The position numbers and the translations under genes were made by a program. 64,000 nucleotides of DNA, taken from the UHGV virus genome UHGV-0209088; one strand, given 5' to 3'. Each line of letters opens with the position of its first letter. The first letter of the stretch is position 1. The notes under the pieces were generated by a model, which worked only from the letters and a program-made list of their open reading frames with translations, ran no database searches and was not told the DNA's origin. The DNA is from a virus. This document shows positions 8,661 through 35,400 of this stretch, in pieces.

Positions 8661-8679
8661 TAGGGCGCACATAGGGCGC
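8661..8679 (+). promoter_or_regulatory. tandem direct repeat TAGGGCGCACATAGGGCGC (copy A of 6), T7/K11-promoter-like
   Basis: 19-bp element recurring 6 times upstream of rightward genes. Confidence 0.5.
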
Positions 8680-12501: not shown

Positions 12502-12520
12502 TAGGGCGCACATAGGGCGC
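12502..12520 (+). promoter_or_regulatory. tandem direct repeat TAGGGCGCACATAGGGCGC (copy B)
   Basis: ends 20 nt before ATG 12541; leaves no room for a sigma70 promoter downstream. Confidence 0.5.
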
Positions 12521-15621: not shown

Positions 15622-15640
15622 TAGGGCGCATATAGGGCGC
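15622..15640 (+). promoter_or_regulatory. tandem direct repeat TAGGGCGCATATAGGGCGC (copy C)
   Basis: same family. Confidence 0.5.
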
Positions 15641-15655
15641 ACCGCAAAGTATTTC

Positions 15656-15684
15656 TTGCTCATATTTGAGTAACTGCGTTACAC
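15656..15684 (+). promoter_or_regulatory. sigma70-like promoter TTGCTC-N17-TTACAC overlapping palindrome TTGCTCATATTTGAGTAA
   Basis: -35 15656-15661, -10 15679-15684; followed by structured 95-nt leader. Confidence 0.5.
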
Positions 15685-15778: not shown

Positions 15779-17560
15779 ATGAATATTACATATGGCTCTG
15801 TGTGCAGCGGCATCGAAGCTGCATCCATTGCATGGGAGCCGCTGGGGCTGAAGCCAGCGTGGTTTTCCGAGATTGAGGCTTTTCCGTCTGCTGTTCTGAA
15901 GCACCACTGGCCGCACGTCAGCAACCTCGGAGATATGACCAAAATCGCCGCCGCTGTGCGTGCTGGCACCGTTCCTGCTCCAGACATAGGCGTGGGTGGC
16001 ACACCTTGTCAGGCATTTTCAGTCGCTGGCGCTCGCGCTGGCCTTTCAGACCCTCGCGGTCAACTCACCATTTCATACGTGGAATTAGCCGATGCAATTG
16101 ACGACACCCGAACCGCAGCCGGAAAACAGCCAGCCATCTTCGTCTGGGAGAACGTGCCCGGAGTCCTCAGCTCCAAAGACAACGCTTTCGGAGCCTTCCT
16201 TGGACTGCTTGCCGGGGAAGACTGTGAGCTACAACCGCCAGGGGGAAAATGGAAGAACGCTGGTTGTGTGCTTGGACCCAAAAGAACAATCGCGTGGCGG
16301 GTCGTTGATGCCCAATATTTCGGAGTGGCCCAACGACGCCGCCGTGTGTTTGTTGTCGCAAGTGCTCGAACCGATTTCGATCCCCGAAAAGTATTTTTTG
16401 AGTCCGAAGGCGTGCGCCGGGATACTGCGCCGAGCCGAAGCGCGGGGTCGGCAGTTGCCGCCCTTACTGCGAATGGCGTTGGAACATGTGGTGCGGACGA
16501 CAACCAAGGACAAGCAGGACACCTGATCGCTGCGTTCGGCGGTGGGAACTGCTCAGGCGCGCTGGATGTAGCGGCCTGCCTGACAGCGCGCGGCCAGCGC
16601 ATTGACTTCGAAGTCGAGACCTTTCTCGCCCAGTACAGCAGCACCGGGCAGGGCGCATGGGCTGAGGGCTTTGGCACGCTGCGCGCCAGAGAGCAGGAGA
16701 GCCACGAGCATCTGGCGGTGATGGCCGTTCACGGCACGCAGGATCCTGACACGCTCAACGAGCTGGCGCACACGCTGGGGCGCAATCAGGGGCAGGAGAA
16801 CGCCGTCATCGCGTTCAACAGCAAAGACCACGGGCAGGATGCCGCGGAGGAAATATCCCCGACGCTGCGCTCCGCTGGTCACGGTACCAGCCACGCGAAC
16901 GCTGGCGCGCCGCCTGCTGTGGCCTATGGCTTCCAGCCGCGTATTGCCCGCAACGGTCGCGGCGATATGGGCGATGTTTGCCACGCTCTTACTGCGGAGG
17001 CCGGGGAGACCGGGAAGGGGGATTCTGCGCCGCATGTGGCCGTTGCCTTCGCTGAGAACAGCCGCGGCGAAATCCGCCTTCAGGATGGCGACGGCGGCAT
17101 CACCGGCCCGCTGTCTACCGGGGGCGGAAAGCCAGGGCAGGGTTATCCGGCAGTGGTCGCCTTTCAGGAACGCGGTCGCGCTGATGGTCGCACGCTGGAG
17201 ATTAACGGCGATCTGGCCTACGCGCTGACAGCGCCAAACGGCGGTGGCCGGGCGCAGGAGCGGAACATTGTCGATTTCCGCACAATGGCCGTGCGTCGCC
17301 TGACGCCGCGCGAGTGCGAGCGCCTGCAGGGCTTCCCCGATGACCACACGCTCATCCCATACGGGAAGGCTATCAGGCCGGAGAAGCTGGAAGCGGACTA
17401 CGCAAAATATCTGATGCGCGGCGGTCGCATGACCTTTGACGAGTGCTGCCGCGCTGCCGCTGATGGCCCGCGTTACAAGGCAATCGGCAATTCAATGGCG
17501 GTGCCGTGCATGGCTTGGATCGGTCGCCGCATCCTGCAACAGCTCGAGGGGGCTATGTGA
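15779..17560 (+). CDS. DNA (cytosine-5) methyltransferase, Dcm-like, with ~330-aa Gly-rich variable/TRD region (593 aa)
   Basis: motif [14 protein letters not shown] motif [15 protein letters not shown] motif FVWENVPGV, motif VIII QRRRVFVV, motif [16 protein letters not shown]. Confidence 0.9.
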
Positions 17561-18240
17561 AAGATATCTACCAGAAGATAAACGGCGATGAGTACCGCGG
17601 CGTGTGGGTCGTAGGTGACCTGCACGGCTGCTACACCAACCTGATGAACCGGCTGGACGCAGTCGGTTTCGACCCGGCGCAGGATCTGCTGGTTTCGGTT
17701 GGCGACCTGATTGACCGCGGGGCGGAGAACGTCGAGTGCCTGGACCTGATTAATCAGCCGTGGTTCCGGGCAGTGCGCGGAAACCATGAGCAGATGATGC
17801 TGGACGCGCTGCTCAATGGGGGCAGCTTCGGTCACTGGATGTCGAACGGTGGTGGCTGGTGGCACAGCATGGATTATGAGCAGGATATGCGGCTGAAATC
17901 CCTGCTCCCCAAGGTAGCTGGTCTGCCGCTGATCATCGAGCTGGAGAAGGGTGGGAAGAAGTTCGTCATCTGCCATGCTGACTACCCGAAAGAAGAGTAC
18001 GAATTCGGAAAGCCGGTAGTCGAGCAGGATGTCATCTGGAACCGCGAGCGTGTCAGCACGTCAATGGATCTGGTGGATAAGGTGCCGGTGAATGACCTGC
18101 TCATTCCTGGCGCTGATCTGTTCATCTTCGGGCATACGCCAGCGCGACAGCCAATGCGTTTCAGCAACCAGCTCTACATCGACACCGGTGCCGTGTTCAC
18201 CGGCAATCTGACACTGGTCAATCTTGGGGAAGTTCTGTGA
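17557..18240 (+). CDS. serine/threonine protein phosphatase (lambda PPase / PrpA-like metallophosphatase, 227 aa, GTG start)
   Basis: GDLHG, GDLIDRG, GNHE motifs; GTG in ATGTGA overlap with MTase stop, RBS gaggggg. Confidence 0.85.
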
Positions 18241-19247: not shown

Positions 19248-19266
19248 TAGGGCGCAGGTAGGGCGC
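19248..19266 (+). promoter_or_regulatory. tandem direct repeat TAGGGCGCAGGTAGGGCGC (copy D)
   Basis: same family; preceded by palindrome gcgcccta...tagggcgc hairpin. Confidence 0.5.
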
Positions 19267-19281
19267 AATGTTCAATATTAC

Positions 19282-19310
19282 TTGCTCAAATATGAGTAAT
19301 TGAGTTACAT
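19282..19310 (+). promoter_or_regulatory. sigma70-like promoter TTGCTC-N17-TTACAT overlapping palindrome TTGCTCAAATATGAGTAA
   Basis: -35 19282-19287, -10 19305-19310; followed by leader homologous to 15685-15778. Confidence 0.5.
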
Positions 19311-19402: not shown

Positions 19403-20653
19403 ATGAATCGATATGAACTACACCTCGGCAACTGCCTTGAGGTGTTGAAGGACTTACCAGACAACTCCGTAGACAGTATCGTCACCGACCCGCCATACGG
19501 CCTTAGCTTCATGAACAAGAAGTGGGATTATGATGTGCCGAGCGTCGAGGTATGGTCCGAATGCCTGCGAGTTCTGAAACCTGGCGGTCATTTGCTGTCG
19601 TTCGCTGGTACCAGAACTCAGCACAGAATGGCCTGCAACATAGAGGACGCTGGCTTCGAGATCCGCGACATGGTGTCATTCCTCTACGACACTAATGAAA
19701 CCGCTCAGGCACTGATTGAAAGCCTGACACCGGAACAGTTGAAAATGCTGGACGCCACCTTCGGTCGAGACTCTATGCTTGCATGGGTGTACGGCAGCGG
19801 TTTCCCTAAATCTCACAACCTCAAAGATGACTGGACAGGCTGGGGCACCGCCCTGAAACCAGCGCTGGAGCCAATCACCGTAGCCCGTAAGCCGTTCAGA
19901 GGAACCGTTGCGGCAAACGTGCTGAAGCATGGCACCGGTGCTCTGAATATTGATGTGTGCCGTATCTCAACGGCAGATAAGCTCGGTGGTGGCGCGGAAA
20001 AGGCGAAGAATGCTGGTCTAATCCATGAAGGGTGGCAGCGTCCGTGGATGAGCGACCCGCAAGCCGCTGAAGCGTATGCGAAACGGATAAGAGAAAATGT
20101 CGAGAAGAGCGAAGCGCTAGGCCGCTGGCCTGCCAACTTGATTCACGACGGCAGCGATGAGGTTCTTGACCTTTTCCCTGAGACCAAATCAGGGGTCATG
20201 AAAGCAGGAACCCGGCGCGCTGCTCAGGATGAGCCTGGGAGCGTTTGTTACGGTACATACGGCGGCAATGCCGCGAGCACCGATACCTATGGGGATTCCG
20301 GTAGTGCTGCCCGTTTCTTCTACTGCGCGAAAGCTACTCGCAAAGACCGTAACGAGGGAATGCAGGATCCAGGCCCGCAGTTCGAACACGGCGCGACGCT
20401 GCGCAAGGTGGAGAATACCGAAACCAAAGGCAACAACCATCCGACAGTGAAGCCGACAGACCTGATGGCCTATCTATGCAGGCTGGTCACGCCTCCTGGC
20501 GGAGTGGTGCTCGACCCTTTCATGGGAAGCGGAAGCACTGGAAAGGCGGCAATGCGAGAAGGGTTCCGATTTATCGGCATTGAGATGGACGCGGACTACC
20601 TTGCGATCGCTGAGGCGCGCATTGCGCATGAGGCCGGGAAGGGGGCAGCATGA
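19403..20653 (+). CDS. beta-class DNA methyltransferase (N6-adenine, DPPY type; 416 aa)
   Basis: DSIVTDPPYGLSF near N-terminus, DPFMGSGSTGKAA near C-terminus. Confidence 0.85.
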   Translation: MNRYELHLGNCLEVLKDLPDNSVDSIVTDPPYGLSFMNKKWDYDVPSVEVWSECLRVLKPGGHLLSFAGTRTQHRMACNIEDAGFEIRDMVSFLYDTNETAQALIESLTPEQLKMLDATFGRDSMLAWVYGSGFPKSHNLKDDWTGWGTALKPALEPITVARKPFRGTVAANVLKHGTGALNIDVCRISTADKLGGGAEKAKNAGLIHEGWQRPWMSDPQAAEAYAKRIRENVEKSEALGRWPANLIHDGSDEVLDLFPETKSGVMKAGTRRAAQDEPGSVCYGTYGGNAASTDTYGDSGSAARFFYCAKATRKDRNEGMQDPGPQFEHGATLRKVENTETKGNNHPTVKPTDLMAYLCRLVTPPGGVVLDPFMGSGSTGKAAMREGFRFIGIEMDADYLAIAEARIAHEAGKGAA

Positions 20654-21135
20654 TGCCCGAGCAACCAAAACGCATCTCGTATAACGAGAGAGGTGCAACT
20701 GCGCCTTACGACCCGCGAGAGGTTTTTCCGCCCGAACTGACTGAATCCAGCAGAAAGATGACTCGCATTCTGGCGCGCGGCGGGCTGCAAAAACACATCC
20801 GCCAGTTCGGCGCTGATGGGCGCTTTACCTTCCACGCCGGGCTGACGGTCGAAGAGGCGGCAGCGCCAGGGATAGTCGAGGCTGTGAAGCGGTCGACGCT
20901 GCATGAGTTCGCCTCCGGTGACCTGGTGGTCATCCGCGGCACCACCGAAGCCGTTGAGATCGAGAAGGTCTGCGGCGTGTTCCTGATCCTGCGCTCATAC
21001 GGCGATGGCGGCTGCAACGCGTTCCGCCGCGTGAACCCGCCGCACGGTCGATACAGCTACGGGCGCATTCACATCTACAAAGGGCATGTTGAGCCAAACG
21101 GGAGGGTCTATGGACCTGGAAAAACACAGAAATAA
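20650..21135 (+). CDS. hypothetical protein (161 aa)
   Basis: ATGA-coupled ORF, RBS gaaggggg. Confidence 0.55.
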   Translation: MMPEQPKRISYNERGATAPYDPREVFPPELTESSRKMTRILARGGLQKHIRQFGADGRFTFHAGLTVEEAAAPGIVEAVKRSTLHEFASGDLVVIRGTTEAVEIEKVCGVFLILRSYGDGGCNAFRRVNPPHGRYSYGRIHIYKGHVEPNGRVYGPGKTQK

Positions 21136-21388: not shown

Positions 21389-21724
21389 TCAGGCGACGAT
21401 CCCCCTGACCGTCGCCATCACCTTTACCAGCGTCTCATCATCGACGCGTCCGAGCTGGTCCGCGTGCGATGCCTCAATGGTGGCCAGCTTCACGGGCCGT
21501 ATCATCGAAGGGGCGGGAAGCCCCGCCTTCTCATGACCGAATATAACCACATCATTATCCCACTGCCGGTTCTCGGCGCTGGTTATCATCGCCACCCAGA
21601 GCAGTGAGCTATCCGGTCCTATGCCGCCGCCAGAAACGACCAGAGCTGGCCTGTGCTGGCGGGTATTCTTGTCGGTGTAGGGGAAAGGTACGCGAACAAC
21701 ATCCCCCTGCTTAAAGGTTGGCAT
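21389..21724 (-). CDS. MazF/PemK-family toxin (endoribonuclease-like, 111 aa)
   Basis: GDVVRVPFPY...HRPALVVS...core typical of PemK/MazF; RBS ggagag; overlaps antitoxin stop by 14 nt. Confidence 0.7.
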   Translation of the reverse strand: MPTFKQGDVVRVPFPYTDKNTRQHRPALVVSGGGIGPDSSLLWVAMITSAENRQWDNDVVIFGHEKAGLPAPSMIRPVKLATIEASHADQLGRVDDETLVKVMATVRGIVA

Positions 21725-21941
21725 AGGCTCTCCGGTCCGCTTCGCTGTCCCACTCACTGAACGTCACGAACGGATCGTCAGCCTGCTGCGTTACCTCGGC
21801 GCGCATGAGCACGACGCGGCCATCTTCAATCTGGTAGGCCAGCTCGTCTCCAGGCTTCAGGTTGAGTGCATTGCGCACTGCCTGCGGGATCGTCGTCTGG
21901 GCCTTGCTGGTCATCCTGCTGGTTATCACCGGCACCTCCAT
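21711..21941 (-). CDS. AbrB/MazE-family antitoxin (SpoVT/AbrB swapped-hairpin domain, ~70-77 aa)
   Basis: TIPQAVRNALNLKPGDELAYQIEDGRVVLMRA matches MazE/AbrB fold; alternative start at 21914. Confidence 0.65.
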   Translation of the reverse strand: MEVPVITSRMTSKAQTTIPQAVRNALNLKPGDELAYQIEDGRVVLMRAEVTQQADDPFVTFSEWDSEADRRAYANL

Positions 21942-22237
21942 TGCTCCATCTGATGTAAGGAATTTCCTTACCGATCGCAAGGGGGATGTATGCTGCGCTG
22001 CACAACATTGGTTTTCAAGGAGTCAAGCCCGCAATTGTCCGTGATATTGTGCATCGTAGCATGCTGAATTTCGAATCAGCGATCCTCGTCAACAACTTAT
22101 CTTAGTCCTGCATACGGGACGGAACAGCCATGCTTGTCCGTATGCTAGCCCTCCCAATCAACGAAATTAGAACACACCCATAAGAAGTGCCCATAGGCAC
22201 CGATTCGATAAGAAAATAATCGCTTCTGGGGCTATTT

Positions 22238-23086
22238 ATGGAAGTAATTACTCGCATCCGCAGTGAGTCCGCGGAGTTGCGTCGCGTATCCGATCTAAAG
22301 GTCTATGAGTTCAAGGGGCATCAGGGAACGGACAATCTTAAATCCAATGATCATTTCGCCGTACTTATGAACAGCGGCGGTAGACTGAGCGTACAGTGGG
22401 AAGGCAATAAAACCTTGTGCAATGAAGTTGACGCAGGGGATGTGATATTCAGCCCGTCAGGCTCGACAATCTCATGCAATCATCGAGAGGCCGTAAGCAG
22501 CTCTTTCATAGCACTGAAACAGTCAGTGTTCGTGAACGCTTCGAAAGATCATGTTGATTACGGTAGTATTGATTTTACCGGGCGACACATCAGGCGGCCA
22601 GTGACCACGACCATGGCCATGACCCTTCGCAACCTGAGTTCAGTTGAATCCTATCAGGAATGGCCGATGCTGATCGAGTCTGCCACTCTCGCGTTTGTGA
22701 TAGCGCTGATTTCTGCGCTGTCTCCTGCTGCTACAAAGGCGTTCCGTGAAAAGCCATACGGGATAGGTGATGTGCGCAAGAAGCGGGTGGTTGAGTACAT
22801 CGACGCGCACCTCACCAGAACGATATCCCTGGCTGAACTGGCGTATGAGGTTGGACTGAGCCAGTACCACTTCTCGCGGCTTTTCAAGAAGCGCTTCGGC
22901 ATGAGTATCATGGAATACATCAGCATGCGTCGGGTTGAGGTGGCGAAGGAAAAGCTGCAACTGACCGGCGATACGCTGGCGAGTATCGCCCACGACTGCG
23001 GGTTTTGCAGTCAAAGCCACTTCACTGGGGTTTTCGTGAGGATCACCGGCGTTACGCCAGCAGCGTACCGTAATGGCGCAAAGTAG
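22238..23086 (+). CDS. AraC/XylS-family transcriptional regulator (282 aa), probable moron
   Basis: C-terminal double HTH (LAELAYEVGLSQYHFSRLFKK...IAHDCGFCSQSHFTGVF); N-terminal cupin-like domain; locally low GC. Confidence 0.85.
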   Translation: MEVITRIRSESAELRRVSDLKVYEFKGHQGTDNLKSNDHFAVLMNSGGRLSVQWEGNKTLCNEVDAGDVIFSPSGSTISCNHREAVSSSFIALKQSVFVNASKDHVDYGSIDFTGRHIRRPVTTTMAMTLRNLSSVESYQEWPMLIESATLAFVIALISALSPAATKAFREKPYGIGDVRKKRVVEYIDAHLTRTISLAELAYEVGLSQYHFSRLFKKRFGMSIMEYISMRRVEVAKEKLQLTGDTLASIAHDCGFCSQSHFTGVFVRITGVTPAAYRNGAK

Positions 23087-23164: not shown

Positions 23165-23183
23165 CAGGGCGCAGATAGGGCGC
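23165..23183 (+). promoter_or_regulatory. tandem direct repeat CAGGGCGCAGATAGGGCGC (copy E)
   Basis: same family, first unit T to C. Confidence 0.45.
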
Positions 23184-23245
23184 AACAACACGCAAAATCG
23201 TCGTGACCATACACTGGCTGCATCATTCTTTTGCGGCCAGTATGT

Positions 23246-26200
23246 ATGCGACTCGTTCTCCTCAAAGCTCAGAAGTTTGCCAACCAGGCGGGTTATTACC
23301 TGCTGAACGGTCGTTGGCACAAAACCTCGCAGGATAAGCCTGCTCCGAAAGGCGCGCCGGTTTCCGCGCATCCTCACTCCGCGGGTAAACCCGTCGCGAA
23401 AGAGACGCTGGCTGACCACGAGTGGCAGCAGCTGCAGCTCCCTGCCGAGAACGTCAACGCGAAGACCTTCAACAAGCAGCTCGACCAGCTCAAAGCGGCG
23501 GCCGTCGCCGGTGACGTGACTGGCATTCTGGGAAGCGGCTATGGCACGAACACCTACGGCAAAAAACTCGCGATCATTGCGAACCACGTTCTCGGGCTGC
23601 TGGGCAGTGACCATAAGGTTACCCCGGGCCAGAAAGCTGGCACGCACGCCGCTGTGCAAACCGCGCCAGAGATCGAGGCAGAAGCGCCAGCGCCGAAGCC
23701 GGAGCCAAAAGCAGAGCCGGAGCCGAAGGCCGAAGAGAAACCTGCAGCGCCGGCGCCGGAGAAAAAGGCCGACGCAGAACTGGCGGTGCCGGAGTTTGCC
23801 GAAGGCAAGCAGGCCAAAGGCGTGAAGGCCCACTACGAGAAGGTGGCGAAGAAGATCATCCGCGCCGCCAAGGCCGGTGACCTGTCTGCGCTCCAGTTCA
23901 TGGCAAAACCTGACCAGACGAGCTGGAAGGGTAAGACCGACAACAGCAAGAAGCTGATAGCGCTGCACCAGGCGGCGATCGCTTACGCTCAGGCCAACAA
24001 GCCGGCTGGCAAAGACATCCAGCATCCGGACGCGGAGAAGCAGGCCGCGAAGGAGGCGAAGGAGCTCGCGAAAGAGCAGGGCACTCCTGAGAAGGCACCA
24101 GAACCGGAGAAGAAGCCGAAGCCAGCCAAAGCGGAAGAGCCGAAATTCACCGACAAGGGGACGCTCGCCAATCCGTCCGGATACGGGAAGACTTTCGCCA
24201 ACCTGAAACAGGCCAACGCCGCGGCTGAGAAGCTGAAGGCGCAGGGGCATGATGTCTATGTCACCGCGCAGCACCCGTATCAGGTGAAACTCAATAAGCC
24301 GGAGCCGAAGCAGGAAGCCAAACCAGATCCGAAGCCGGAGCCGGCGAAGCAGGAAACCAAAGAACAGCCTAAAGGCGACGCAGCCGGCAAGCTGTCCCAG
24401 ATCCCGTGGGACAACCTGCTGCTGCCGGACAGCAACAAGAACGCCAAGAGCCACAACAAGCAGGTCGCCAAGATTAAGGCGATGGCTGAGGCTGGCGACA
24501 TCGAGGGGCTGAAAAACTTCAAGGCTGGCACCAACACCTACGGCAAGAAGCAAAACCTGCTGGCCCAGACTGCACTGGCGGCGCTGGAAGAGTCTGCGCC
24601 TGCACCCAAGGCTGAGGAGAAGGCAGCGCCGGATGAGAAGCCGAAGGCCGCTGAACCTGCCGCCAATGGGTTGCCGAAGAAGCCGGACAACGCCGGTAAG
24701 TGGCAAGACACGGTGGATGCGCTGGAAGGTTGGGCGAAGAGCGGCAATCTCACCGAAGCCGAGAGCATGTATTACGACCTGTATTCGCTGGTCGATGAAA
24801 TGCCGGACGCAATGCCGATCCTGCACTACGCCCAGGATGTGGTCTCTCACATCAAGAAGGCTGGGGCAGAACAGGGTGGCAAGCCGCAGAAGCCGACCGG
24901 CCTCACCAGCGTCCACTGGAACTCGACCGTCAACGAGATCGAAGCGCAGATGGAGGCCGGGAACGAAGCCTATCTCCAGACCAAGGTAGAGCAGACTGCT
25001 GGCCTGGCGTCTGCCGAAGCGAAGTCTGTACATGATTACGCCGTTGGCGCGCTTGGGTTCGTGCAGGACCAGAAGCAGGGCAACAGCGCCAGCACCGAAA
25101 ACGACGGCCCGATGGAAGGGGAGACCAAGCAGGGCGCGAACGGCACGCTCGTGTTCCACAATGGCCGCTGGCACAAACAGGGCGATGAGAAGGCGGCAGA
25201 GAAACCGGCGCCAGCTGGCCCGGCTGATGTCGAGATCCCGACCTTCAACGGCCCCAATGCCACCCATAACGCGTGGCTGCAGAAGGCCGCTGAGGCGCTG
25301 AAAGAGAAGGTGGTTTCCGAGGGCAAGGACGGCCTGAAACAGCCGCTGACGAACCACAAGAATGGCTCGGTAACGGTCAACATCGCTGGCGTGAAGGTCG
25401 GCAAGGCCAGCGTGACCAGCTCAAACCCCGCGATCGCGAAATTCGCCCAGTTCGTGGATGAGCTGAAAGCCTCTGTCGGCAAGGTGAAGAAGGCCAAGCC
25501 GGCACCGAAGGCGACGCAGGCTCCAGCGCCGGCCGCCGAGCCGGAGCAGCCGAAGCAGCTCGAGAGCATGGACAGCTGGACGCAGACTGGCGGCCAAGGC
25601 GGTTCGAACCCTGGCGGGAAGTTCAAGGACGAGAACGGCGTCGAGTGGTACTGCAAGTTCCCAGAGAACGACCATATCGCGAAGGCCGAGGTGCTGGCCG
25701 CGAAGCTCTACTCCGCGCTGGGCCTGAACGCTCAGGATGCGAAGCTCGTCACCAAAGATGGCAAGGTGGGCATCGCCAGCCGCTGGGTGAACGTCAAGAA
25801 AGCATCTCCGAAAGAGCTGGCCCAGACCCCGGGCGTTCTCGAAGGCTTCGCCGCTGACGCGTGGCTCGCGAACTGGGATGTGGTGGGTCTCGGCTTCGAT
25901 AACCTGCAGGTGGATGACCAGGGGCACGCCATGCGCGTCGACGCTGGTGGCTCCCTCATGTACCGGGCTCAGGGCAGCAAGAAGGCGTTCGGGGAACACG
26001 TCACCGAGCTGGACAGCCTGCGCGATCCGAAAATCAACCCGCAGGCGGCCGCAGTGTTCGGCCAGATGTCTGAGGCTGACATCACGGCGTCGGTGGCGAA
26101 GGTCGCGCAGATCTCCGATGCGCAGATCCGCATCATGGTGAACAACTTCGGCCCGGGCGATAAGGCCGAGCGGAAGGCGCTGGCTGAGACGCTGATTGCG

Positions 26201-27298
26201 CGCAAGAACGACCTGATCGCGAAGTACCCGAAGTCCGTGAAGGTCAAGAAGAAGCGCCTCGACCCGGAAAACCTGCCGGTGAAAGAGGATCGCCTGCCGA
26301 AAGAGCACGACTTCGCCAACTGGAACGGCCCGGGCGCCGGTCTGTCAGGGAAGGCTCACGTCAACGCCGCCAACCAGAAGGTTGAGAGCGAGATGCTGGC
26401 CATCGCGAAATCGGGCAACCTGACCAAGCTGAAGGACTACAAATTCCAGCCGGTTGACATTGCCACGGGCGAACCGAAAGGCGAACCGATCCCGGTGGGC
26501 CAGCACCCGTCGAAGCATGTGCAGCAGTTCCACCAGGACCTGATTCAGGCGCTGGATGAAATCGCGAACCCGCCGCAGCCGCTGAAGATCTTCCAGGAAT
26601 CCGACCTGAACACGTTGGATGAGCTGGATATGGCCTTCCCGTCGAAGAAATTCGGCACGACGGTCAACGCCGTTCATTCGAACGAGAAGATGGGATTTTG
26701 GGTGGTTCTCGGCGGCGTCCACAAGGCGGCCGAGAAGTTCATGCCGAAGAAGATCACCCACTTCACCACTCAGGCTATCGACGCGGCCTACCAGAAGTTC
26801 AAGGAGGGTTCGAAGCTGGCGAAGCACTTCGTTCTCTCCGTGCAGGCGTCAGGCAGCTACAACGACCTGTTCCGCGAGGGCAAGGAGACGGACCACGCCG
26901 GGAACAAGCTGTCTGATGTGGCGAAAGCCGCGATGGAGTTTGCCACCGAGCAGCCGGAAGGGACGACCGTCTACCGCTGGCAGCACATGACCAAGGACAT
27001 GGTGGACAAGATCATGAGCGCGCCGGACGGTACGGTGTTCCAGGCGACCGGCCCTATGTGTACCTCGATGTCGCCTACGGCCACCTCGCACTTTGGCCCG
27101 CACCGGATCACCATCCATTACGCGAAGGGTGCGAAGGCGGTCGAGAGCTTCGGATCCGGCAAGTTCGCGGGCGAGAAGGAAGTCACAACGTTACCGAACA
27201 GCCGGTTCGTCATTCTCAAGAAAGAGATGGTCCCGGCTGGCAGCGGGAAACGCATGGAGCTGGAAGTGCTTATGCTTCCGCCTGACCTTGGGTTATAA
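23246..27298 (+). CDS. very large multidomain protein (~1350 aa): duplicated N-terminal modules, Pro/Glu/Lys-rich linkers, kinase-like (HipA/PI3-4K-like) central domain, C-terminal ADP-ribosyltransferase-like R-S-E signature; candidate virion-injected effector
   Basis: single uninterrupted ORF; repeats NGRWHK x2 and GTNTYGKK x2; GGKFKDENGVEWYCKF...VGLGFDNLQVD...VDAGG; YRW...CTSMS...GEKEV at C-terminus; start codon uncertain (weak RBS). Confidence 0.7.
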   Translation: MRLVLLKAQKFANQAGYYLLNGRWHKTSQDKPAPKGAPVSAHPHSAGKPVAKETLADHEWQQLQLPAENVNAKTFNKQLDQLKAAAVAGDVTGILGSGYGTNTYGKKLAIIANHVLGLLGSDHKVTPGQKAGTHAAVQTAPEIEAEAPAPKPEPKAEPEPKAEEKPAAPAPEKKADAELAVPEFAEGKQAKGVKAHYEKVAKKIIRAAKAGDLSALQFMAKPDQTSWKGKTDNSKKLIALHQAAIAYAQANKPAGKDIQHPDAEKQAAKEAKELAKEQGTPEKAPEPEKKPKPAKAEEPKFTDKGTLANPSGYGKTFANLKQANAAAEKLKAQGHDVYVTAQHPYQVKLNKPEPKQEAKPDPKPEPAKQETKEQPKGDAAGKLSQIPWDNLLLPDSNKNAKSHNKQVAKIKAMAEAGDIEGLKNFKAGTNTYGKKQNLLAQTALAALEESAPAPKAEEKAAPDEKPKAAEPAANGLPKKPDNAGKWQDTVDALEGWAKSGNLTEAESMYYDLYSLVDEMPDAMPILHYAQDVVSHIKKAGAEQGGKPQKPTGLTSVHWNSTVNEIEAQMEAGNEAYLQTKVEQTAGLASAEAKSVHDYAVGALGFVQDQKQGNSASTENDGPMEGETKQGANGTLVFHNGRWHKQGDEKAAEKPAPAGPADVEIPTFNGPNATHNAWLQKAAEALKEKVVSEGKDGLKQPLTNHKNGSVTVNIAGVKVGKASVTSSNPAIAKFAQFVDELKASVGKVKKAKPAPKATQAPAPAAEPEQPKQLESMDSWTQTGGQGGSNPGGKFKDENGVEWYCKFPENDHIAKAEVLAAKLYSALGLNAQDAKLVTKDGKVGIASRWVNVKKASPKELAQTPGVLEGFAADAWLANWDVVGLGFDNLQVDDQGHAMRVDAGGSLMYRAQGSKKAFGEHVTELDSLRDPKINPQAAAVFGQMSEADITASVAKVAQISDAQIRIMVNNFGPGDKAERKALAETLIARKNDLIAKYPKSVKVKKKRLDPENLPVKEDRLPKEHDFANWNGPGAGLSGKAHVNAANQKVESEMLAIAKSGNLTKLKDYKFQPVDIATGEPKGEPIPVGQHPSKHVQQFHQDLIQALDEIANPPQPLKIFQESDLNTLDELDMAFPSKKFGTTVNAVHSNEKMGFWVVLGGVHKAAEKFMPKKITHFTTQAIDAAYQKFKEGSKLAKHFVLSVQASGSYNDLFREGKETDHAGNKLSDVAKAAMEFATEQPEGTTVYRWQHMTKDMVDKIMSAPDGTVFQATGPMCTSMSPTATSHFGPHRITIHYAKGAKAVESFGSGKFAGEKEVTTLPNSRFVILKKEMVPAGSGKRMELEVLMLPPDLGL

Positions 27299-27322
27299 TG
27301 TATATTATTTGAGGAATAGATT

Positions 27323-27820
27323 ATGACCGATAAGAAAGAGATCGAGGGCACGCCGGAACGCGCCGCCGACCGCGGGCGCGAGGTGGATCTCGGGTTCAGC
27401 ATGGACCCGCGCCCCTCTCTGGGTAATGCCGATGTTGTGCGCGAGCTGGTGTCGAAATTCGGCTCCGAAGTCGTGGCGGTCCGCCGTGACTACCTGGAAG
27501 ACAAGCTGACCGGGCCGGAGGCTCAGGCCCGCATCCGCGACCTGGCGCGCGATTACGGCGCCATTGTCATGGGGCGCGACGCAGACTATTTCTCGCTGCC
27601 ATGGAACAGCGAGGCCCGGCTTGGCCGCCGCATCAAGCTGGTTGTGCCGGCTGTCGAGGGCGTGAACGATCCCGGCGAGCTGCTGTTCCTGACCGTGGGA
27701 ACCTCCCTTTCGAGTCTGGCGGCAAGCCACGAAGCTGGCCGGGTGACCGATAAAGAGGCCGAGCACCATACCAAGGACATGCTCGAGGATACCGCCAATC
27801 TGATACTGGGGCTGCGCTGA
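27323..27820 (+). CDS. hypothetical protein (165 aa)
   Basis: RBS gagga before ATG. Confidence 0.6.
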   Translation: MTDKKEIEGTPERAADRGREVDLGFSMDPRPSLGNADVVRELVSKFGSEVVAVRRDYLEDKLTGPEAQARIRDLARDYGAIVMGRDADYFSLPWNSEARLGRRIKLVVPAVEGVNDPGELLFLTVGTSLSSLAASHEAGRVTDKEAEHHTKDMLEDTANLILGLR

Positions 27821-28590
27821 TGGACTTCCTGAAAGCTCACGTTAAGGGCTACTCTCGCCGGGACGGCACCTATGTCCCGCCGCACGAGCGCAAGGACGGG
27901 CCGGGTGCAGCACCGGAGAAACCGGTCTACCACCACCCGCGGCTGAGCGAGAACGGCCACAAGGTGCAGATCAAGAACCCGACGCACGCTTCATCCCACA
28001 CCACCTGGCACAACCCGAAGGCGGTGGCCACGTTCGTGCCGAACGGCGATGTGCCTGCCTCCCTCAACGGCGTCGCGCTGACCAGATGGAAGAACCCGCC
28101 TCGCACTCTGGAGGGCTGGGACTACGTGGACGGCGTGAACGATGACCTGCAGGAACCGCCGTTTCACCTGCCCGATGGCAAGCACGCGAGCTCAGGCGTC
28201 ATCATCGAAGAGCCTGACGGGCGCGTCTGGGTGATTTCCCCCACCAACCAGTTCGGCGGCTACGAGGCCACGTTCCCGAAAGGGACGGCGGAGCCGGAGC
28301 TGTCGCTGCAGGCCAACGCCATCAAAGAGGCGTTCGAAGAGTCCGGCCTGAAGGTGGAGATCACCGGCTTTATCGGGGATTTCGAGCGCACCACGTCGGT
28401 GGCGCGGATGTACAAGGCCCGACGCATCGGCGGGTCGCCGGTCCATATGGGCTGGGAAACCCAGGCGGTCCACCTCGTTCCCAAAGAACAAATGTACAAA
28501 TTACTCAATATGTGGCCGGATCATCCCATAGCTGAAAGTATTGGCGCTGGTAAAGCACCAGTAAAGCCAAGTAAAAAAATTGTGGAATGA
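27820..28590 (+). CDS. Nudix-hydrolase-like protein (256 aa)
   Basis: near-canonical Nudix box GTAEPELSLQANAIKEAFEESGL (Gx5Ex7REUxEExGU with K for R). Confidence 0.6.
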   Translation: MDFLKAHVKGYSRRDGTYVPPHERKDGPGAAPEKPVYHHPRLSENGHKVQIKNPTHASSHTTWHNPKAVATFVPNGDVPASLNGVALTRWKNPPRTLEGWDYVDGVNDDLQEPPFHLPDGKHASSGVIIEEPDGRVWVISPTNQFGGYEATFPKGTAEPELSLQANAIKEAFEESGLKVEITGFIGDFERTTSVARMYKARRIGGSPVHMGWETQAVHLVPKEQMYKLLNMWPDHPIAESIGAGKAPVKPSKKIVE

Positions 28591-28625
28591 TCTATTGTAA
28601 CCTTAATCATTTTTGAGTAAGCTAA

Positions 28626-28660
28626 CCCTCGTCAGGTAAACAACTAACGAGGGTTTTTTA
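28626..28660 (+). terminator. rho-independent terminator (ccctcgt...acgaggg + TTTTTTA)
   Basis: 7-bp stem, 14-nt loop, T-run. Confidence 0.65.
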
Positions 28661-28662
28661 TT

Positions 28663-29061
28663 ATGTGGATCATGCTGAACAATGCTTTCATTTCTGTAGT
28701 CGATAAAGCGCCGAACCCTGAACAGCTCGTGGTTCGTGCTCGTGTGGAAGGCCACATCGAGGCGGTATTCCCGCAGGCTGAGGTCATCCGTGATGCGTCC
28801 GGCGACTACCTGTTCCGGGCCTTCATTGACCGCCGTGTTGTGGCGGCTGCGATGCAGCGCGCGGTAATGGACATCGACTACCCGAACTTCAAAAACAGCA
28901 TCAAAGACGACCGCTACCACGATGCCTGTTCCAGCGTCTGGGGTGTGATGTCACGGTTGCAGCCGGTTCGCCCGTACTCCGGTCGTCCATCCCGCAACTA
29001 TGACCTGTTTGGCGCTGGCGGCGCTGGCAAAACTTCAACCCGCGCGAAAAAGGCTCGCTAA
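28663..29061 (+). CDS. hypothetical protein (132 aa)
   Basis: ORF right after terminator. Confidence 0.55.
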   Translation: MWIMLNNAFISVVDKAPNPEQLVVRARVEGHIEAVFPQAEVIRDASGDYLFRAFIDRRVVAAAMQRAVMDIDYPNFKNSIKDDRYHDACSSVWGVMSRLQPVRPYSGRPSRNYDLFGAGGAGKTSTRAKKAR

Positions 29062-30809
29062 TGAACGCTGTAGTCCAGAACCTGCACGGCGAGCTGGTCG
29101 ATGGCATGGAGTTCTTCGCTCCGGCCTCGACCGACCTGCTGGACAGCCTGCTGGGGCAGTACAAGCAGCTCCGGGCCGACATCGAAATGATGGCAGGGCT
29201 GGTAACCACTCACCACGCGTCAGTTTACCATTTCCTGAACGGGAACAGAGGCGACCGCGACCGCACCCATCGTAGCGTGGCGGAGATCTTCAAGCTGGAA
29301 GGTGCCATCGGCAGCCTGAACGCTGAGTTCTGGTCGAAGGCGCTCAAATTGACCGACGTGTACGAGTACATGCCCAACAACCGGCGCGAAGAGTGGAACG
29401 AGCAGATCCGCAACCCGCTGGGGGTGAAAGCTCCGCGCATCAGCGATTACGATTTACGCCATGGCGTAGAGCAGAAGGAATGGACAGTCGCCCCTCTGCC
29501 AGATTTCGAGGAAGAGGCGGTGCGTCCTACTATCATGGCGCTGCTCAATGCGCGCCAGCAGTTCTTCTCTGAGCGCGTTGACGGGATTTTCCGCGCGCTG
29601 TCCGGCGAGCATGTGACGAACCGCCCTGAAGGCTTCGGGAAGCGCATGATCCTCGCCCGCGTCTTCAACGAGTGGGGCAGCACAGACTACAAAATGGCTG
29701 GCTACATTCACGATTTGCGCATCGTGATCGCCAAGTTCATGGGCCGCGACGAGCCAAATGGGTGGGCACCGACCGACGCCGCTCTGCTGGCAGCACGTCG
29801 CCGCCCTGGCGAGTGGTTAACGATTGACGGCGGCGCGCTGCGCATTCGTGGCTATCTGAAGGGTACGGCGCATCTGGAAGTTCACCCAGAAATGGCTTGG
29901 CGTCTTAACTGCATTCTGGCGCAGCTCTACCCGCTGGCGATCCCGCCGCAGTTCCGCCAGAAGCCGAAGCGCAAGCTCAAAGACTTTGTGATGATGGGCA
30001 AGCCGTTGCCGTTCGCGGTGCTGGGAGTGCTCGCAGGGATGAAGGCCGAGAAGCATACGCCATGGCGTGCTGATCGCTGGGAAGAACCACGCCAGCCTCT
30101 CACCACTAACCCGTTCAACCGTCGATTTGAATGGCGTGATGAGGGTAAGGCCGTCCTTTCTCAGGCTGAAAAGGTGCTGGAGAGTATCGGCGGCGTGAAG
30201 GTGATGGCCGGGCCGAAACAGAATATCGCGATCTGGGAGTTCGACTATGAGCCGGGCAGCGTTCTGGACGAGATTATCGCGTCTGGCTGCATACCAGACC
30301 ATCAATCGCACCAGTATTACCCGACGCCTGATGGTCTGGCGGAACTGGCCGAGAGCATTCTCGAAATCGGCCCCGAGCATAAGTGTCTGGAGCCGAGCGC
30401 AGGGCAGGGCGGTCTGGCGAAGTACATGCCAGCCGAGCGCACGACCTGCGTGGAGATCTCCAAGCTGCATTGCAAGGTGCTGGAGGCGAAGGGCTTCAAC
30501 GTGCAGCAGGCAGATTTCATCGCGTGGGCGGATACCGTCAAATACCCGATCTTCGATCGCGTTCTGATGAACCCGCCGTTCTCCGAAGGCCGGGCAAAGG
30601 CTCACGTAGAGGCCGCTGCCTCGCTGGTGAAGAAGGGTGGCCGTCTTGTGGCGATCCTGCCGTCAGGGATACGCAATACCGATATCCTGCCGGGCTGGGA
30701 TGTGAGCTGGACGCAGGTATTTGATAATGAATTCGGCGGCACGTCCGTCTCGGTGGTCATCCTGAAGGCTGACCGTAAAGCAGATAACCGGAAGGCTTCG
30801 GCCCTCTAA
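29061..30809 (+). CDS. gamma-class N6-adenine DNA methyltransferase with ~400-aa N-terminal domain of unknown function (582 aa)
   Basis: LEPSAGQGGLAKY (motif I) followed by LMNPPFSEG (motif IV) in C-terminal third; TAATG coupling. Confidence 0.75.
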   Translation: MNAVVQNLHGELVDGMEFFAPASTDLLDSLLGQYKQLRADIEMMAGLVTTHHASVYHFLNGNRGDRDRTHRSVAEIFKLEGAIGSLNAEFWSKALKLTDVYEYMPNNRREEWNEQIRNPLGVKAPRISDYDLRHGVEQKEWTVAPLPDFEEEAVRPTIMALLNARQQFFSERVDGIFRALSGEHVTNRPEGFGKRMILARVFNEWGSTDYKMAGYIHDLRIVIAKFMGRDEPNGWAPTDAALLAARRRPGEWLTIDGGALRIRGYLKGTAHLEVHPEMAWRLNCILAQLYPLAIPPQFRQKPKRKLKDFVMMGKPLPFAVLGVLAGMKAEKHTPWRADRWEEPRQPLTTNPFNRRFEWRDEGKAVLSQAEKVLESIGGVKVMAGPKQNIAIWEFDYEPGSVLDEIIASGCIPDHQSHQYYPTPDGLAELAESILEIGPEHKCLEPSAGQGGLAKYMPAERTTCVEISKLHCKVLEAKGFNVQQADFIAWADTVKYPIFDRVLMNPPFSEGRAKAHVEAAASLVKKGGRLVAILPSGIRNTDILPGWDVSWTQVFDNEFGGTSVSVVILKADRKADNRKASAL

Positions 30810-31792: not shown

Positions 31793-31811
31793 TAGGGCGC
31801 TCATAGGGCGC
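31793..31811 (+). promoter_or_regulatory. tandem direct repeat TAGGGCGCTCATAGGGCGC (copy F)
   Basis: preceded by ccgccag...ctggcgg hairpin; ends 11 nt before ATG 31823. Confidence 0.5.
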
Positions 31812-32497: not shown

Positions 32498-35400
32498 ATG
32501 GCTATTACTGACGAACGCACACCCCAATTTAACCTTCCGCTTCCCGTCAAAACTAACGCGCTGAAGGATGACGTTGAGCGTTTACGAGAAGGGCTTATCC
32601 TCCTCGATCAGCTGATCGTATCCGCAACCAAATTATCTTCGGAAGGTGGTTCTGAGTTTATTTTTGGCTTGGGGAACATAATCGGGACAACCAGCGAGAT
32701 CCTGGCATCCACTAAAAATCCTCAAGCATACCAGACGAACGGGTTCTACGCGCAGAACGACGGTGGTGAAGGTGTCTGGAAATTCACCGGTAATACTGAT
32801 GCGTCTAAGGCTGGAACCCACGCCATTACCAAGGGCATGGTCTATAACGCCAATGGTAATGAGTATGCGCTTGATATCAGCTCCGGCAAAGTCAGCGTTC
32901 TGGCTAACGGTGCCAAAGCGTATACTTACGCGCAATGCGTCGACCAAACGACCGACAACTTTGTTTGCGTAGGTCAAGCCCATAATGGCATCACTTCGCT
33001 TCTGCCCCCAGCTGTCTCTACCTCGAACAACGTAGCGACCTATCAAGGTGGAAAGCGCCTTTCTATTACGTGCCCGTCAAACATCTGGCGTATCGGTAAG
33101 GAGCACATCAAGCTGGTATCCGGTGTTGACTACCGCTGGGATGGCGCTCGCTTCATGGTATACGCAGGCTTGTCGTATACTTACGCCGCTACCGGGAAGA
33201 AACTGAACGGCGCGTGCCATGGGTACGACGAGATCAAGGAAAAATGGGAAGCCGTAGGTAGGCAGAGTTATTGGGGATCGGTAAGCGCGCAGAACATCAA
33301 TATTTACGGCGGCATCTTCTACGGTGATCACGCCATTAACAAGCAAGCTAATGATTGCTCTGCCGGTGTCGCTATCCTTGTGCTTAACCCTGAATACGTG
33401 AACCTATACGGAGTTTACACCCGCGGGTTCACTTGGGATGCTGTCGGTATTCCAGCTCAGCTGGCGGAAACCAACTACAAAACCGTTTATGGGAACAAGT
33501 TTGACGATAACGAAAAAGACTATCGTTATGTCCTTGATTACATGGTTGAAGCAGGCGTAACCAGCCGCTTTGGCAACTTCTATGGCTTCAACTGCACCAA
33601 CTGCCAGTTCTCTGGTGGCCGCCGCGGTACTTACCGCAACGGTTCTGACTGGTCGCACTTCACTGGCGGCAAGATCACCCAGGAACTCGCATGGCAAACT
33701 CCGGGTAACGTGTCTGGCGATGTCCCTCAGTACATTGGCGTCATCACTGGGACCGGCTTCCATTGTTCTGGGGCTTATACATCTCCTGCTGCAGCGAAGG
33801 GGTATAACCCTTCAGAGAGCGTCTTCTATACCAGCGCAAGAAACCATGTGTTCACAGGTCTCTATACCGAATGGGCCTATAACCTGTTCACGATTTCAGC
33901 CTTTACATTTGTCGGTGCGGCATCTCGATTGCAGAGTCTGCATATCGACTGCGTAAGCACGTACAAAGATGATTTCATGAACTACAATCAGGTCAAGTTT
34001 GAGCAAGGCTGCTTCGGGACCGTTGATGATGCTGGTAACTACATTTATCCAGCAGGATTCGCACATTTTGACCTACCGAACGGTGCTACTTGCTGGTCGT
34101 GGGGAACGCCGGTTCGTGATTTAGGGGCTTTCCGCCACGGAGGCTTCGATACCAAGTTTGGCCCGTACAATATGTACATGACTGCCGGAACTGACTGGGA
34201 GTCATGGCGCGACCGTCCGTATGCGAAAGAAATGTTTAACGCTTACGGTCTTCAGATCAACAGCGGCACCGTTTTCCTGCCGTGGCAGACGCCAGCTATC
34301 AAGTCCATGGCTTGTATCTGGATTAAAGACCTGACCGGTAATTTTGACCCACGAAATGTTGTGGCCTGGCAGACAGCAGCAAGCCAGGATGGTAGCAACA
34401 GCGACGAAGCGCTGTACAAATCGTTCGGCGAGAAGATGTTCGATTATGGCAACGGCTACAAGATGATCATGGTCGCTCAGAAACGCCTGAGCGCACATGA
34501 CGGCCTTTATTCTTATGCCCGTAACCCGAACATCGTCATTACCGTTCCGCCTGAGACGCCAATCGTAATTAAAGCTGTTGAAGCCTATACTGGCGGTGTA
34601 CCGATGTTCCCGAACGGTTGCGCCAACTACGAGCCTGAATCTCCATGCACCAGCGTCCTGAGCACTGTCTCTAACCAGGTAGGTCAGGACAGCAGCCTTG
34701 GCGGTGGATTGTTCGTAAACGGCGACGTAATTGCTCCGTGGGTTCATAAACGTCGCACTCAGACCGGGTATCGGATCACTCCTAGCCTTACAGCGGGATA
34801 TGGCGTGACCAAACGCATGGTAACTGGCGGCGTGACGCTTGAGAGTGCTTATAAAGTCGCTTTCAGCGCGACCATCGACTCGGTGGATAGCACCAAAGGT
34901 CTGACTACAATAACTGTTCCGTCAGCTCAGCTGCCGTATGTTGCTGTTGGTATTCCGCTATATGTCACCGGTGGTTCAAGTACCAGCACGACGGGACAGG
35001 TTCATCTGCTGAAACGCTTGATGAATGCCGATGGAACTGCGACCGCAAAATATGTCGTAATGGGCGTCATTGGCGCCGCAGGCGATACGCTGACGATTGA
35101 TCAGGCTCAGCTACCAGCTTACAGCTTCTATTCCGACTACAGCGTGAATACCCTGACTGCGACATCGGTCACGATCAACGGTGTTGGGACTGCGAATGCC
35201 TTCCGTGGCACCGCCTCTCTGGGTATAGGGTACAATGCCCCAGCCGGGGTCAAGCCTCTTGAGTTCTTCTTTAATGGGGGAACCACTCCGTCGCACCGAC
35301 TGGTTGCATCCTCTGCGTCTGGGATGGTGTTAGAAGCTGGGGGAAACTTCTCGGTCGTCGGTCACATTTTCCCCAGCGCAGATAATACCTACTCACTCGG

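Follow-up and report, generated by a model that had tools for sequence, protein, structure and literature searches.

The virus genome UHGV-0209088, of which a stretch of 64,000 nucleotides was analysed (hereafter the window), contains a + strand operon of three genes encoding a large protein with both a kinase domain and an R-S-E mono-ADP-ribosyltransferase (ART) domain, a 165-amino-acid (aa) protein and a Nudix hydrolase. Both catalytic domains have recognisable folds with intact catalytic residues, the operon is conserved among related phages, and its parts are found repeatedly as fusions elsewhere. We consider it rather probable that this operon, carried by a temperate ~92-kb phage with a contractile tail, encodes a polyvalent effector for host modification together with two accessory proteins, and that the effector modifies host proteins, perhaps after delivery from the capsid. 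A preliminary description of this DNA had already proposed an injected host-modification module of this kind, and that interpretation stands, with the exception of the injection step, the specificity of the Nudix protein, the register of the S-T-S motif in the ART domain and the private nature of an upstream repeat. The features of the operon are listed below.

23231 (TTG) to 27298, + strand: open reading frame (ORF) of the large effector, 1355 aa from the TTG and 1350 aa from the first ATG at 23246
23231 to 25540, + strand: variable N-terminal half (aa 1–770) with repeated helical modules, NGRWHK hairpin motifs and disordered Pro/Glu/Lys-rich linkers
25568 to 26260, + strand: CtkA/HipA/PI4K-like kinase domain (aa 780–1010) with Gly-rich loop G791–G796, K809, E820, D876-x4-N881 and D904-A-G
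26288 to 26680, + strand: helical domain termed MID (aa 1020–1150) with an invariant HPSxH motif
26681 to 27295, + strand: C3/Vip2/Alt-type R-S-E mono-ADP-ribosyltransferase domain (aa ~1151–1355) with R1249, C1277-T1278-S1279 and E1315-x-E1317
27323 to 27820, + strand: conserved 165-aa partner protein, preceded by a good Shine-Dalgarno sequence
27820 to 28590, + strand: Nudix hydrolase of 256 aa, with the fold at aa 121–235, the Nudix box at aa 155–177 (nucleotides 28282–28350) and a 120-aa N-terminal extension
28624 to 28661, + strand: intrinsic-terminator-like hairpin followed by T6, with a 9-bp G+C-rich stem (-19.2 kcal/mol, z = -2.95 against shuffled sequences), ending the three-gene operon

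Domains of the large protein

The kinase domain (aa 780–1010) was not recognised by any sequence method, giving no match at E≤0.1 in Pfam, NCBIfam or PHROG, and it lies outside the existing family models HipA_C, HipA_2, PI3_PI4_kinase and APH. Its multi-copy relatives gave only summed or sub-threshold matches of the N-lobe to kinase family models. The region does have a bilobal kinase fold, and the structural neighbours identified (tabulated values in brackets) were CtkA (15.6, with 195 residues aligned), CotH (13.2), PI4K type II (12.6), MavQ (11.8), HipA-type chains (11.7–9.9), Fam20 (~10), actin-fragmin kinase (9.9) and Rio kinases (≤9.5). The earlier guess of a HipA/CtkA/PI3-4-kinase-like core, for which a fold search had been named as the check, was correct, as CtkA, PI4K type II and HipA-type chains are all present among these neighbours.

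Conservation was assessed using an alignment of 276 domain copies from 248 representative proteins. Both residues of the D-x4-N loop (D876 and N881) were found in 100% of copies, followed by E820 of helix C (99%), D904 of VDAGG (97%), G791 and G795 (96–97%) and K809 at the end of beta-3 (96%), and the positions of these catalytic residues agree with the modelled strands and helices of the domain. The motifs originally quoted for this region occur at aa 795 (GGKFKDENGVEWYCKF), 824 (AKLYSALGL), 879 (LANWDVVGLGFDNLQVD) and 903 (VDAGG), with the strictly invariant catalytic loop, DAWLAN, starting three residues ahead of the string LANWDVVGLGFDNLQVD. The loop contains no His and the C-lobe is helical. 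The straightforward reading is that the kinase is catalytically intact and would be an active phosphotransferase. CtkA, the closest neighbour, is a Ser/Thr protein kinase; as lipid kinases are found among the neighbours alongside protein kinases, the fold does not reveal the substrate class of the window kinase. Taken alone, the kinase domain was found in 4,788 clusters at 50% identity (1,190 at E≤1e-30), in proteins reaching 7,004 aa and with up to five copies per protein. Elsewhere in the window, a calcineurin-like metallophosphoesterase is encoded at 17506–18240 (+), annotated as a Ser/Thr protein phosphatase in Aeromonas phage ST4, which may antagonise or time the kinase.

The kinase is followed by the MID domain, whose fold had no match to any solved structure, and then by the ART domain. 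The latter shows the NAD-binding split beta-sandwich with an N-terminal helical sub-domain, and its structural neighbours (again with tabulated values) were C3bot2 (13.9), C3stau2 (13.0), Certhrax (12.6), an Iota-like toxin (12.6), Vip2 (12.2), Lmo0066 (12.2), Vis (11.2), HopU1 (10.8), Tre1 (10.6) and SpvB (9.9). With these C3/Vip2-type neighbours, and with R1249 and E1315-x-E1317 in place, the assignment of an R-S-E mono-ADP-ribosyltransferase was right. In single-sequence searches the domain reached 13.4 bits (E 0.048) with Pfam ADPrib_exo_Tox (PF03496) and E 0.15 with Vip2. Homologues aligned over the same region pass PF03496, namely ORF50 of Morganella phage Mecenats66 (48.1 bits), a protein of plasmid p2463-1 (34.7 bits) and P0120 (53.4 bits), and a 42-sequence profile of the domain matches SpvB at E 0.005 and Tre1 at E 0.65. 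When MID and ART were searched together against a viral structure library using Foldseek, the top match was a 'Nudix hydrolase domain containing protein' (E 1.9e-22), and many further matches were ARTs fused to MuF, portal or minor capsid proteins, as well as T4-type Alt.

The three motifs quoted for the ART triad were located at aa 1246 (TVYRW), 1277 (CTSMS) and 1314 (GEKEV). The assignments of the Arg and of the E-x-E were borne out, while the S-x-S had been placed in the wrong register, the equivalent of S-T-S being C1277-T1278-S1279 and not S1279-M-S1281. R1249 falls on YRW in Vip2 and on YRG in SpvB when aligned, its column containing Arg in 34 of 42 homologues, Lys in seven and Gly in one. 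S1279 is invariant; the first position of S-T-S is occupied by Cys in the window subtype and by Ser in a sister subtype scoring above the Pfam threshold. E1315-K-E1317, the E-x-E of the ARTT loop, is likewise invariant (42/42 and 54/54 aligned homologues). Three ART subtypes occur at this position in the family: YRW/MCTS/GEKE, as in the window; SRK/MSTS/GEDE, which passes Pfam; and YKW/MCCS/SE[KQ]E (P0088, P0100, P0094, P0091, P0116, P0087 and P0090), which has Lys for the catalytic Arg and C-C-S for S-T-S but keeps E-x-E. Judged from its residues, the last would be an unusual active-site variant for an R-S-E enzyme.

The conserved portion of the large protein is its C-terminal 55% (kinase, MID and ART), while the N-terminal half differs among homologues, some of which have a WGR or GNAT domain there. 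Every motif that had been quoted was located in the ORF, which is real; its stated length of 1355 aa belongs to the TTG at 23231, and the ATG at 23246 given as its start yields 1350 aa. This ATG is more likely the true start, as it agrees better with the N-termini of homologues. GTNTYGKK occurs at aa 105 and 433 and NGRWHK at aa 26 and 644. The duplicated modules, noted before as ~50 aa, are real and longer, with aa 36–112 and 364–440 sharing 44% identity over 77 aa (E 1.4e-15); these repeats needed piecewise BLAST, self-BLAST of the whole protein giving the identity match only. Degenerate copies of the helical unit of these repeats, 'NAKxxNKxV..A.AGDxxxL', are found at approximately aa 199, 490 and 1044. 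The four Pro/Glu/Lys-rich linkers already described were located at aa 141–188, 273–313, 348–387 and 451–486, and two more bracket the kinase (aa 753–775 and 1000–1025). No hydrophobic or membrane segment and no signal peptide was found in the protein (maximum Kyte-Doolittle value over 19 residues, 0.92). NGRWHK was also considered as a degenerate WGR domain, an idea that was dropped as the true WGR of homologues sits elsewhere, ~180–240 aa before the kinase.

Operon partners and relatives in other phages

The window matches Aeromonas phage ST4 (90.6 kb) and Pseudomonas phages Jeremy and Dolphis (93–95 kb) with 73–80% identity in patches, and no match was obtained by megablast against plasmids. 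Its structural genes include a GpA-type terminase (36063–38696), an HK97-type portal (40583–42301) and baseplate genes (59.6–64 kb). The annotation of ST4 includes baseplate proteins as well as an integrase and a repressor, so this group of phages is probably temperate with contractile tails. The gene order of AraC regulator, large protein, ~165-aa protein, Nudix hydrolase, ~130-aa protein and DUF4942-methyltransferase is common to ST4, Jeremy and Dolphis. The core of large protein, ~165-aa protein and Nudix hydrolase is kept in these three, in a Kaistia prophage, in Mecenats66 and in ECML-606-1, so that its carriers are phages or prophages of ~90 kb from Aeromonas, Pseudomonas, Morganella, E. 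coli and Kaistia. The three genes correspond to ST4_109–107 in ST4, gp117–119 in Dolphis, ORF50–52 in Mecenats66 and gp47–45 in ECML-606-1. For the full-length large protein, 182 homologues were found, most of them on phage-sized contigs of 90–95 kb and some in the chromosomes of Kaistia, Tardiphaga and Geminicoccus.

The 165-aa protein has 120 homologues (47–97% identity) of near-constant length except for one short match, many of which come from contigs matching in size those that encode the large protein. It had no match in Pfam, PHROG, NCBIfam, PADLOC or PDB profiles. A small ORF (~160–176 aa) with weak similarity to it is located 3' of the large gene in Mecenats66, Kaistia and plasmid p2463-1.

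The stop codon of the 165-aa ORF overlaps the start of the Nudix gene as TGATG. The presence of a Nudix protein two genes downstream of the effector, as first noted, was confirmed by PF00293 (39 bits against a cut-off of 21.1, E 1e-9, aa 121–235). Its Nudix box (G-x5-E-x7-R-E-U-x-E-E-x-G-U) is in register with E16, E19, E20, G22 and L23 present, and it deviates at two places, with Leu at position 7 (Glu being at 6) and Lys for Arg at 15. The activity proposed for it, hydrolysis of ADP-ribose, would be only one possibility. Among solved chains, Ap4A hydrolase 3i7u (E 9.5e-6) and NUDT6 come closest, followed by Ndx1, DIPP and RppH. ADP-ribose pyrophosphatases are marked by a conserved Pro ~16 residues after the Nudix box, and no Pro is found in the 27 residues that follow the box here. 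Trimming of NAD caps, dinucleotides or protein-ADP-ribose would be as likely as the hydrolysis of free ADP-ribose. The functional link of the Nudix gene to the effector, on the other hand, was strengthened, as other phages fuse Nudix, kinase and ART in one polypeptide.

Within aa 1–27 of the Nudix protein (27820–27900) there is a basic motif, HVKGYSRRDGTYVPPHERK, which is kept in the orthologues of Dolphis, Kaistia and Mecenats66 and is present in no other protein of the window. In the fused protein of p2463-1 it is replaced by R[FY]PKGxP[KR]GGQFKPKG motifs. The pattern 'GYxRRxGxxVxxHxR' was tried as a shared N-terminal packaging signal and rejected, being present among window proteins in the Nudix protein only. 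The hairpin and T6 at 28624–28661 supply the terminator that had been described for the unit; a simple consensus terminator scan missed it, probably because its internal bulge and second short helix do not fit the scan pattern.

Evidence that these genes belong together comes from phages in which they are fused or lie close to one another. Plasmid p2463-1 of Pseudomonas juntendi encodes a 1466-aa protein made up of Nudix (155–269), kinase (475–691), MID and ART (1296–1463; PF03496 34.7 bits), the Nudix part of which is 53% identical to that of the window, including part of the N-terminal extension. Its gene is flanked by head genes, those for the portal (DUF935) and MuF directly preceding it and those for the protease, decoration and major capsid proteins following. 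In Gordonia phage Sixama, the kinase protein gp73 adjoins the portal gene and is two genes from a 1285-aa ART (gp75), both being upstream of the maturation protease. Fusions of MuF with two to three kinase domains and an ART were identified in P0142, P0156, P0185 and P0201, and P0207 combines Nudix, MuF, helix-turn-helix (HTH) and two kinase domains. The link between kinase and ART is thus found in at least three phage lineages and that with Nudix in two, namely p2463-1 and the family of the window, to which Nudix fusions from uncultured phages can be added. A physical fusion of the linked parts to a head protein is seen in several lineages.

Proposed role and competing explanations

We propose that the effector would act inside the infected bacterium, phosphorylating and ADP-ribosylating host proteins at the expense of ATP and NAD+. 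T4 Alt, ModA and ModB are the classic host-takeover ADP-ribosyltransferases of phages, and by analogy with these enzymes and with the T7 kinase the likely targets would be components of transcription, translation or defence. The E-x-E form occurs in arginine-specific ARTs such as C2, iota, Vip2, SpvB and Alt, and by comparison with characterised enzymes the acceptor would be arginine. The Nudix hydrolase may act in the same pathway, where it might trim NAD-derived products or signals or turn protein-ADP-ribose into phosphoribose. The 165-aa protein would be a partner dedicated to the effector, whether as inhibitor, chaperone or adaptor.

More tentatively, the large protein would be loaded into the capsid and delivered with the DNA. 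Packaging and injection into the host are plausible by analogy, because relatives are fused to MuF or encoded between the portal and the prohead protease. Approximately 44% of phage ARTs occur in head-packaging contexts, those of the Alt/VIP2 family frequently so, and T4 Alt itself is packaged in the head and injected (PMC9503650). The N-terminal repeat modules of the large protein were not detected in its MuF-fused relatives, so the repeat region could conceivably replace MuF as the packaging module and would supply that function in this MuF-less lineage.

A number of observations weigh against this reading. No MuF-type domain was detected in the window ORFs scanned, the terminase being of the lambda-GpA type and the portal of the HK97 type, and the large protein itself has no MuF, portal or known capsid-targeting element. 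Its gene sits in the company of accessory genes and methyltransferases, with the terminase 8.7 kb further downstream, a location equally compatible with expression after entry and without packaging, as for T4 ModA/B and the T7 kinase. With respect to enzymology, the Pfam ART score of the protein is below the cut-off (13.4 against 23.4 bits), the first Ser of S-T-S is replaced by Cys in this subtype, and no ADPRase is present among the closest solved Nudix chains, so the Nudix subtype does not specify ADP-ribose. In the literature, no data on substrate, timing or virion proteome were found for any member of the family; the Mecenats66 paper contains no mass spectrometry and does not discuss ORF50–52, and the papers retrieved cover neither this family of proteins nor phages ST4 and fHe-Yen8-01, nor does any of them deal with CtkA- or HipA-like kinases in the head proteins of phages.

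As the main alternative, it is possible, though not likely, that the same enzymes act on the same bacterial targets without being packaged, being made from the incoming or induced genome in the manner of T4 ModA/ModB and the T7 kinase and serving intracellular takeover or counter-defence. Such a role would suit a gene that is placed with methyltransferases in an accessory region, at 8.7 kb from the terminase, and has a regulatory element and a terminator to itself, as would the lack of any MuF, portal fusion or capsid-targeting motif. The kinase–ART pair, however, is repeatedly MuF-fused or located within head modules in other lineages, and the tandem element ahead of the operon also heads the tailspike/terminase operon, so the gene is not marked as early by its regulation. 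These same MuF-fused and head-module relatives point to a virion effector when a second alternative is considered, that of a prophage toxin–immunity module, or one for abortive infection or superinfection exclusion, in which an ART/kinase toxin would be held by the 165-aa protein as antidote with the Nudix protein as an extra detoxifier. A small, tightly conserved ORF directly 3' of a toxin-like gene, structural neighbours that include ART toxins with cognate immunity proteins (Tre1 and Lmo0066), and a temperate phage whose relative ST4 has an integrase and repressor are all in keeping with it. It is nevertheless very unlikely in our view, as there was no defence-system model match, the 165-aa protein has no sequence match in Pfam or to solved structures and nothing ties it to ARH or Macro hydrolases, and a 1350-aa multi-enzyme layout with variable added domains typifies polyvalent effectors and not the toxins of toxin–antitoxin systems. 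A reading of the module as a defence system was itself dropped, there being no PADLOC (defence-system model) match for it.

The closest solved structures are all toxins or effectors that target eukaryotes, and a regulator of the AraC type is adjacent, both of which would agree with a lysogenic-conversion virulence factor directed at eukaryotic cells and analogous to CtkA, C3, Vip2 and SpvB. Such a role must be regarded as extremely unlikely: the protein lacks a signal peptide and any domain for translocation or receptor binding, its family is kept in phages whose hosts are bacteria of soil and water (Pseudomonas putida, Kaistia, Tardiphaga, Gordonia and Aeromonas), and its relatives show a link to the head module. 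A more elaborate scheme, which we regard as unlikely, would have the ART, Nudix and kinase carry out three steps of one conserved pathway instead of serving as independent weapons, for instance with the ART marking a host protein, the Nudix hydrolase trimming the ADP-ribose to phosphoribose as protection against host hydrolases, and the kinase priming the same target or modifying it further. The CtkA-like kinases would then be a large unmodelled family of phage effectors (~4,800 clusters), with Helicobacter CtkA as an offshoot.

With regard to known systems, the favoured reading of a polyvalent effector places the protein closest to the polyvalent proteins of phages and conjugative elements, a class in which ART is the commonest protein-modifying domain (Iyer, Burroughs, Anand, de Souza, Aravind 2017, PMC5512222). 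As in that class, it is a large phage polypeptide in which several effector domains (kinase, MID, ART and repeats) are strung together with linkers, and its relatives are MuF-fused or found in head modules and exchange GNAT, WGR and Nudix domains in a mix-and-match pattern. The kinase described for that class differs, being a truncated Ser/Thr/Tyr-type domain without a C-lobe found mainly in Verrucomicrobia, Chlamydia and Bacteroidetes (PMC5512222), whereas that of the window is CtkA/HipA/PI4K-like, has a helical C-lobe and lacks His in its D-x4-N loop. A fusion to, or location beside, head proteins was also not found for it in the window, unlike in its relatives of other lineages.

The protein is phage-encoded like T4 Alt and shares the R-S-E fold and the E-x-E with it and the T4Alt/VIP2 family, and T4-type Alt was recovered by Foldseek at E ~6e-6 to 7e-7. 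Alt was not among the closest matches, however, with C3, Certhrax, Vip2 and proteins of uncultured phages ranking higher, and it possesses neither a kinase domain nor a Nudix partner, nor the Cys that takes the place of the first Ser of S-T-S in the window ART. CtkA (JHP940 of Helicobacter pylori, PDB 3akj) is likewise encoded on a mobile element, reportedly the tfs/plasticity-zone integrative and conjugative element, but it is a stand-alone protein of ~325 aa, reported to be active on human cells, with no ART, MID or repeats, and no sequence-level match was found between it and the window kinase. T7 gp0.7 is also a phage-encoded kinase presumed to act on host proteins, and it had no detectable relationship to the window kinase in the searches made. 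In contrast to HipA and HipT, there is no HipB- or HipS-type partner and the locus is not a toxin–antitoxin locus. The MuF-fused polymorphic toxins are represented among the relatives by P0142, P0156, P0185 and P0201, with MuF at the N-terminus and an ART toxin at the C-terminus; the window protein lacks MuF and carries its kinase domain between the N-terminal region and the toxin domain.

Part of this is already known, in that GenBank labels homologues as 'ADP-ribosyltransferase' and the concept of polyvalent ART effectors has been published. What is new, relative to Pfam, NCBIfam and PHROGs and to the literature searched, is the kinase domain of the CtkA type, the MID domain that obligately accompanies it, the persistent association of this kinase with an ART of the Alt/Vip2 type and a Nudix hydrolase, and the size of the kinase family. 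To our knowledge, polyvalent virion effectors have been widely predicted and almost none has been characterised. Here a CtkA-like kinase and a Nudix hydrolase persistently accompany an ART of the Alt/Vip2 type, as neighbouring genes in proteobacterial phages and as single polypeptides in uncultured and plasmid-borne phages, while in a Gordonia phage kinase and ART are adjacent genes of the head module. As Pfam, NCBIfam and PHROGs all miss this abundant kinase, a second catalytic activity may be hidden in thousands of phage proteins labelled 'hypothetical' or just 'ADP-ribosyltransferase'. These findings also suggest a mobile-element origin of Helicobacter pylori CtkA. The prediction can be tested in cultured members, namely Aeromonas phage ST4, Pseudomonas phages Dolphis, Jeremy and Touem01, Morganella phage Mecenats66, E. 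coli phage ECML-606-1 and Yersinia phage fHe-Yen8-01.

Regulatory elements and neighbouring genes

Two further features are located directly ahead of the operon.

22238 to 23086, + strand: AraC-family regulator (HTH_AraC E 1e-26, HTH_18 E 1e-24), directly upstream of the effector operon
23165 to 23183, + strand: tandem CAGGGCGC-N3-TAGGGCGC element upstream of the effector operon, a candidate operator or activator site

The TAGGGCGC repeat had been taken to be the unit's own. It was found not to be private, as six tandem pairs occur across the window, all on the + strand (8661–8679, 12502–12520, 15622–15640, 19248–19266, 23165–23183 and 31793–31811). With 0.06 copies of the TAGGGCGC-N3-TAGGGCGC element (11-bp period) expected by chance against the six observed, it is a genome-wide regulatory element and not specific to the effector unit. 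Five of the six are positioned in gaps ahead of + strand ORFs, that at 12502 lying just upstream of an ATG at ~12586, and exact copies were also identified in ST4 and in Kaistia prophage loci. The last copy precedes the tailspike/terminase operon while others precede methyltransferase operons, and for this reason the element does not discriminate early from late genes. Its presence at both the effector and the tailspike/terminase operons is compatible with co-expression of the effector with virion genes.

The AraC-family regulator is a possible binder of the tandem element. The position of its gene is the same in ST4, and in Dolphis and Kaistia it is located elsewhere in the genome. A palindrome, TTGCTCAnATnTGAGTAA, was also observed 10–15 bp downstream of the tandem element at ~15650–15675 and ~19277–19300, with a degenerate form near 8715, and may represent another operator, although the effector gene has no copy ahead of it.

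Among the surrounding genes, a 1157-aa tailspike or tail fibre with a C-terminal Peptidase_S74 intramolecular-chaperone domain is encoded at 32498–35971 (+), directly upstream of the terminase, and is not shared with ST4 at that position. A 161-aa ORF at 20650–21135 (+) had no Pfam or PHROG match; its homologues in Dolphis and Jeremy are annotated as 'adenylosuccinate synthase', a label that is probably wrong given that the protein is far too short for this enzyme. Between a methyltransferase gene and the AraC gene there is a MazF/PemK-like toxin (21389–21757, -) with a MazE/AbrB-like antitoxin (21711–21980, -), and gp101/gp102 in the accessory region of Dolphis are annotated as MazF/MazE. ST4 encodes, at 16159–17899, a NadR-like nicotinamide-nucleotide adenylyltransferase and a PnuC nicotinamide mononucleotide (NMN) transporter for which no counterpart was found in the 64-kb window; these NAD+ salvage genes fit either an NAD+-consuming effector or a countermeasure to NAD+ depletion.

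Four DNA methyltransferase genes occur within 17 kb (14023–15543, 15779–17560, 19403–20653 and 29061–30809). They include a C5-cytosine enzyme, an N6/N4 enzyme with DPPY before FxGxG (the beta-class order), and a DUF4942 fusion with a MAD2-like adenine methyltransferase, which is annotated as 'RE endonuclease' in ST4 and Dolphis. The presence of four such genes suggests heavy self-methylation against restriction.

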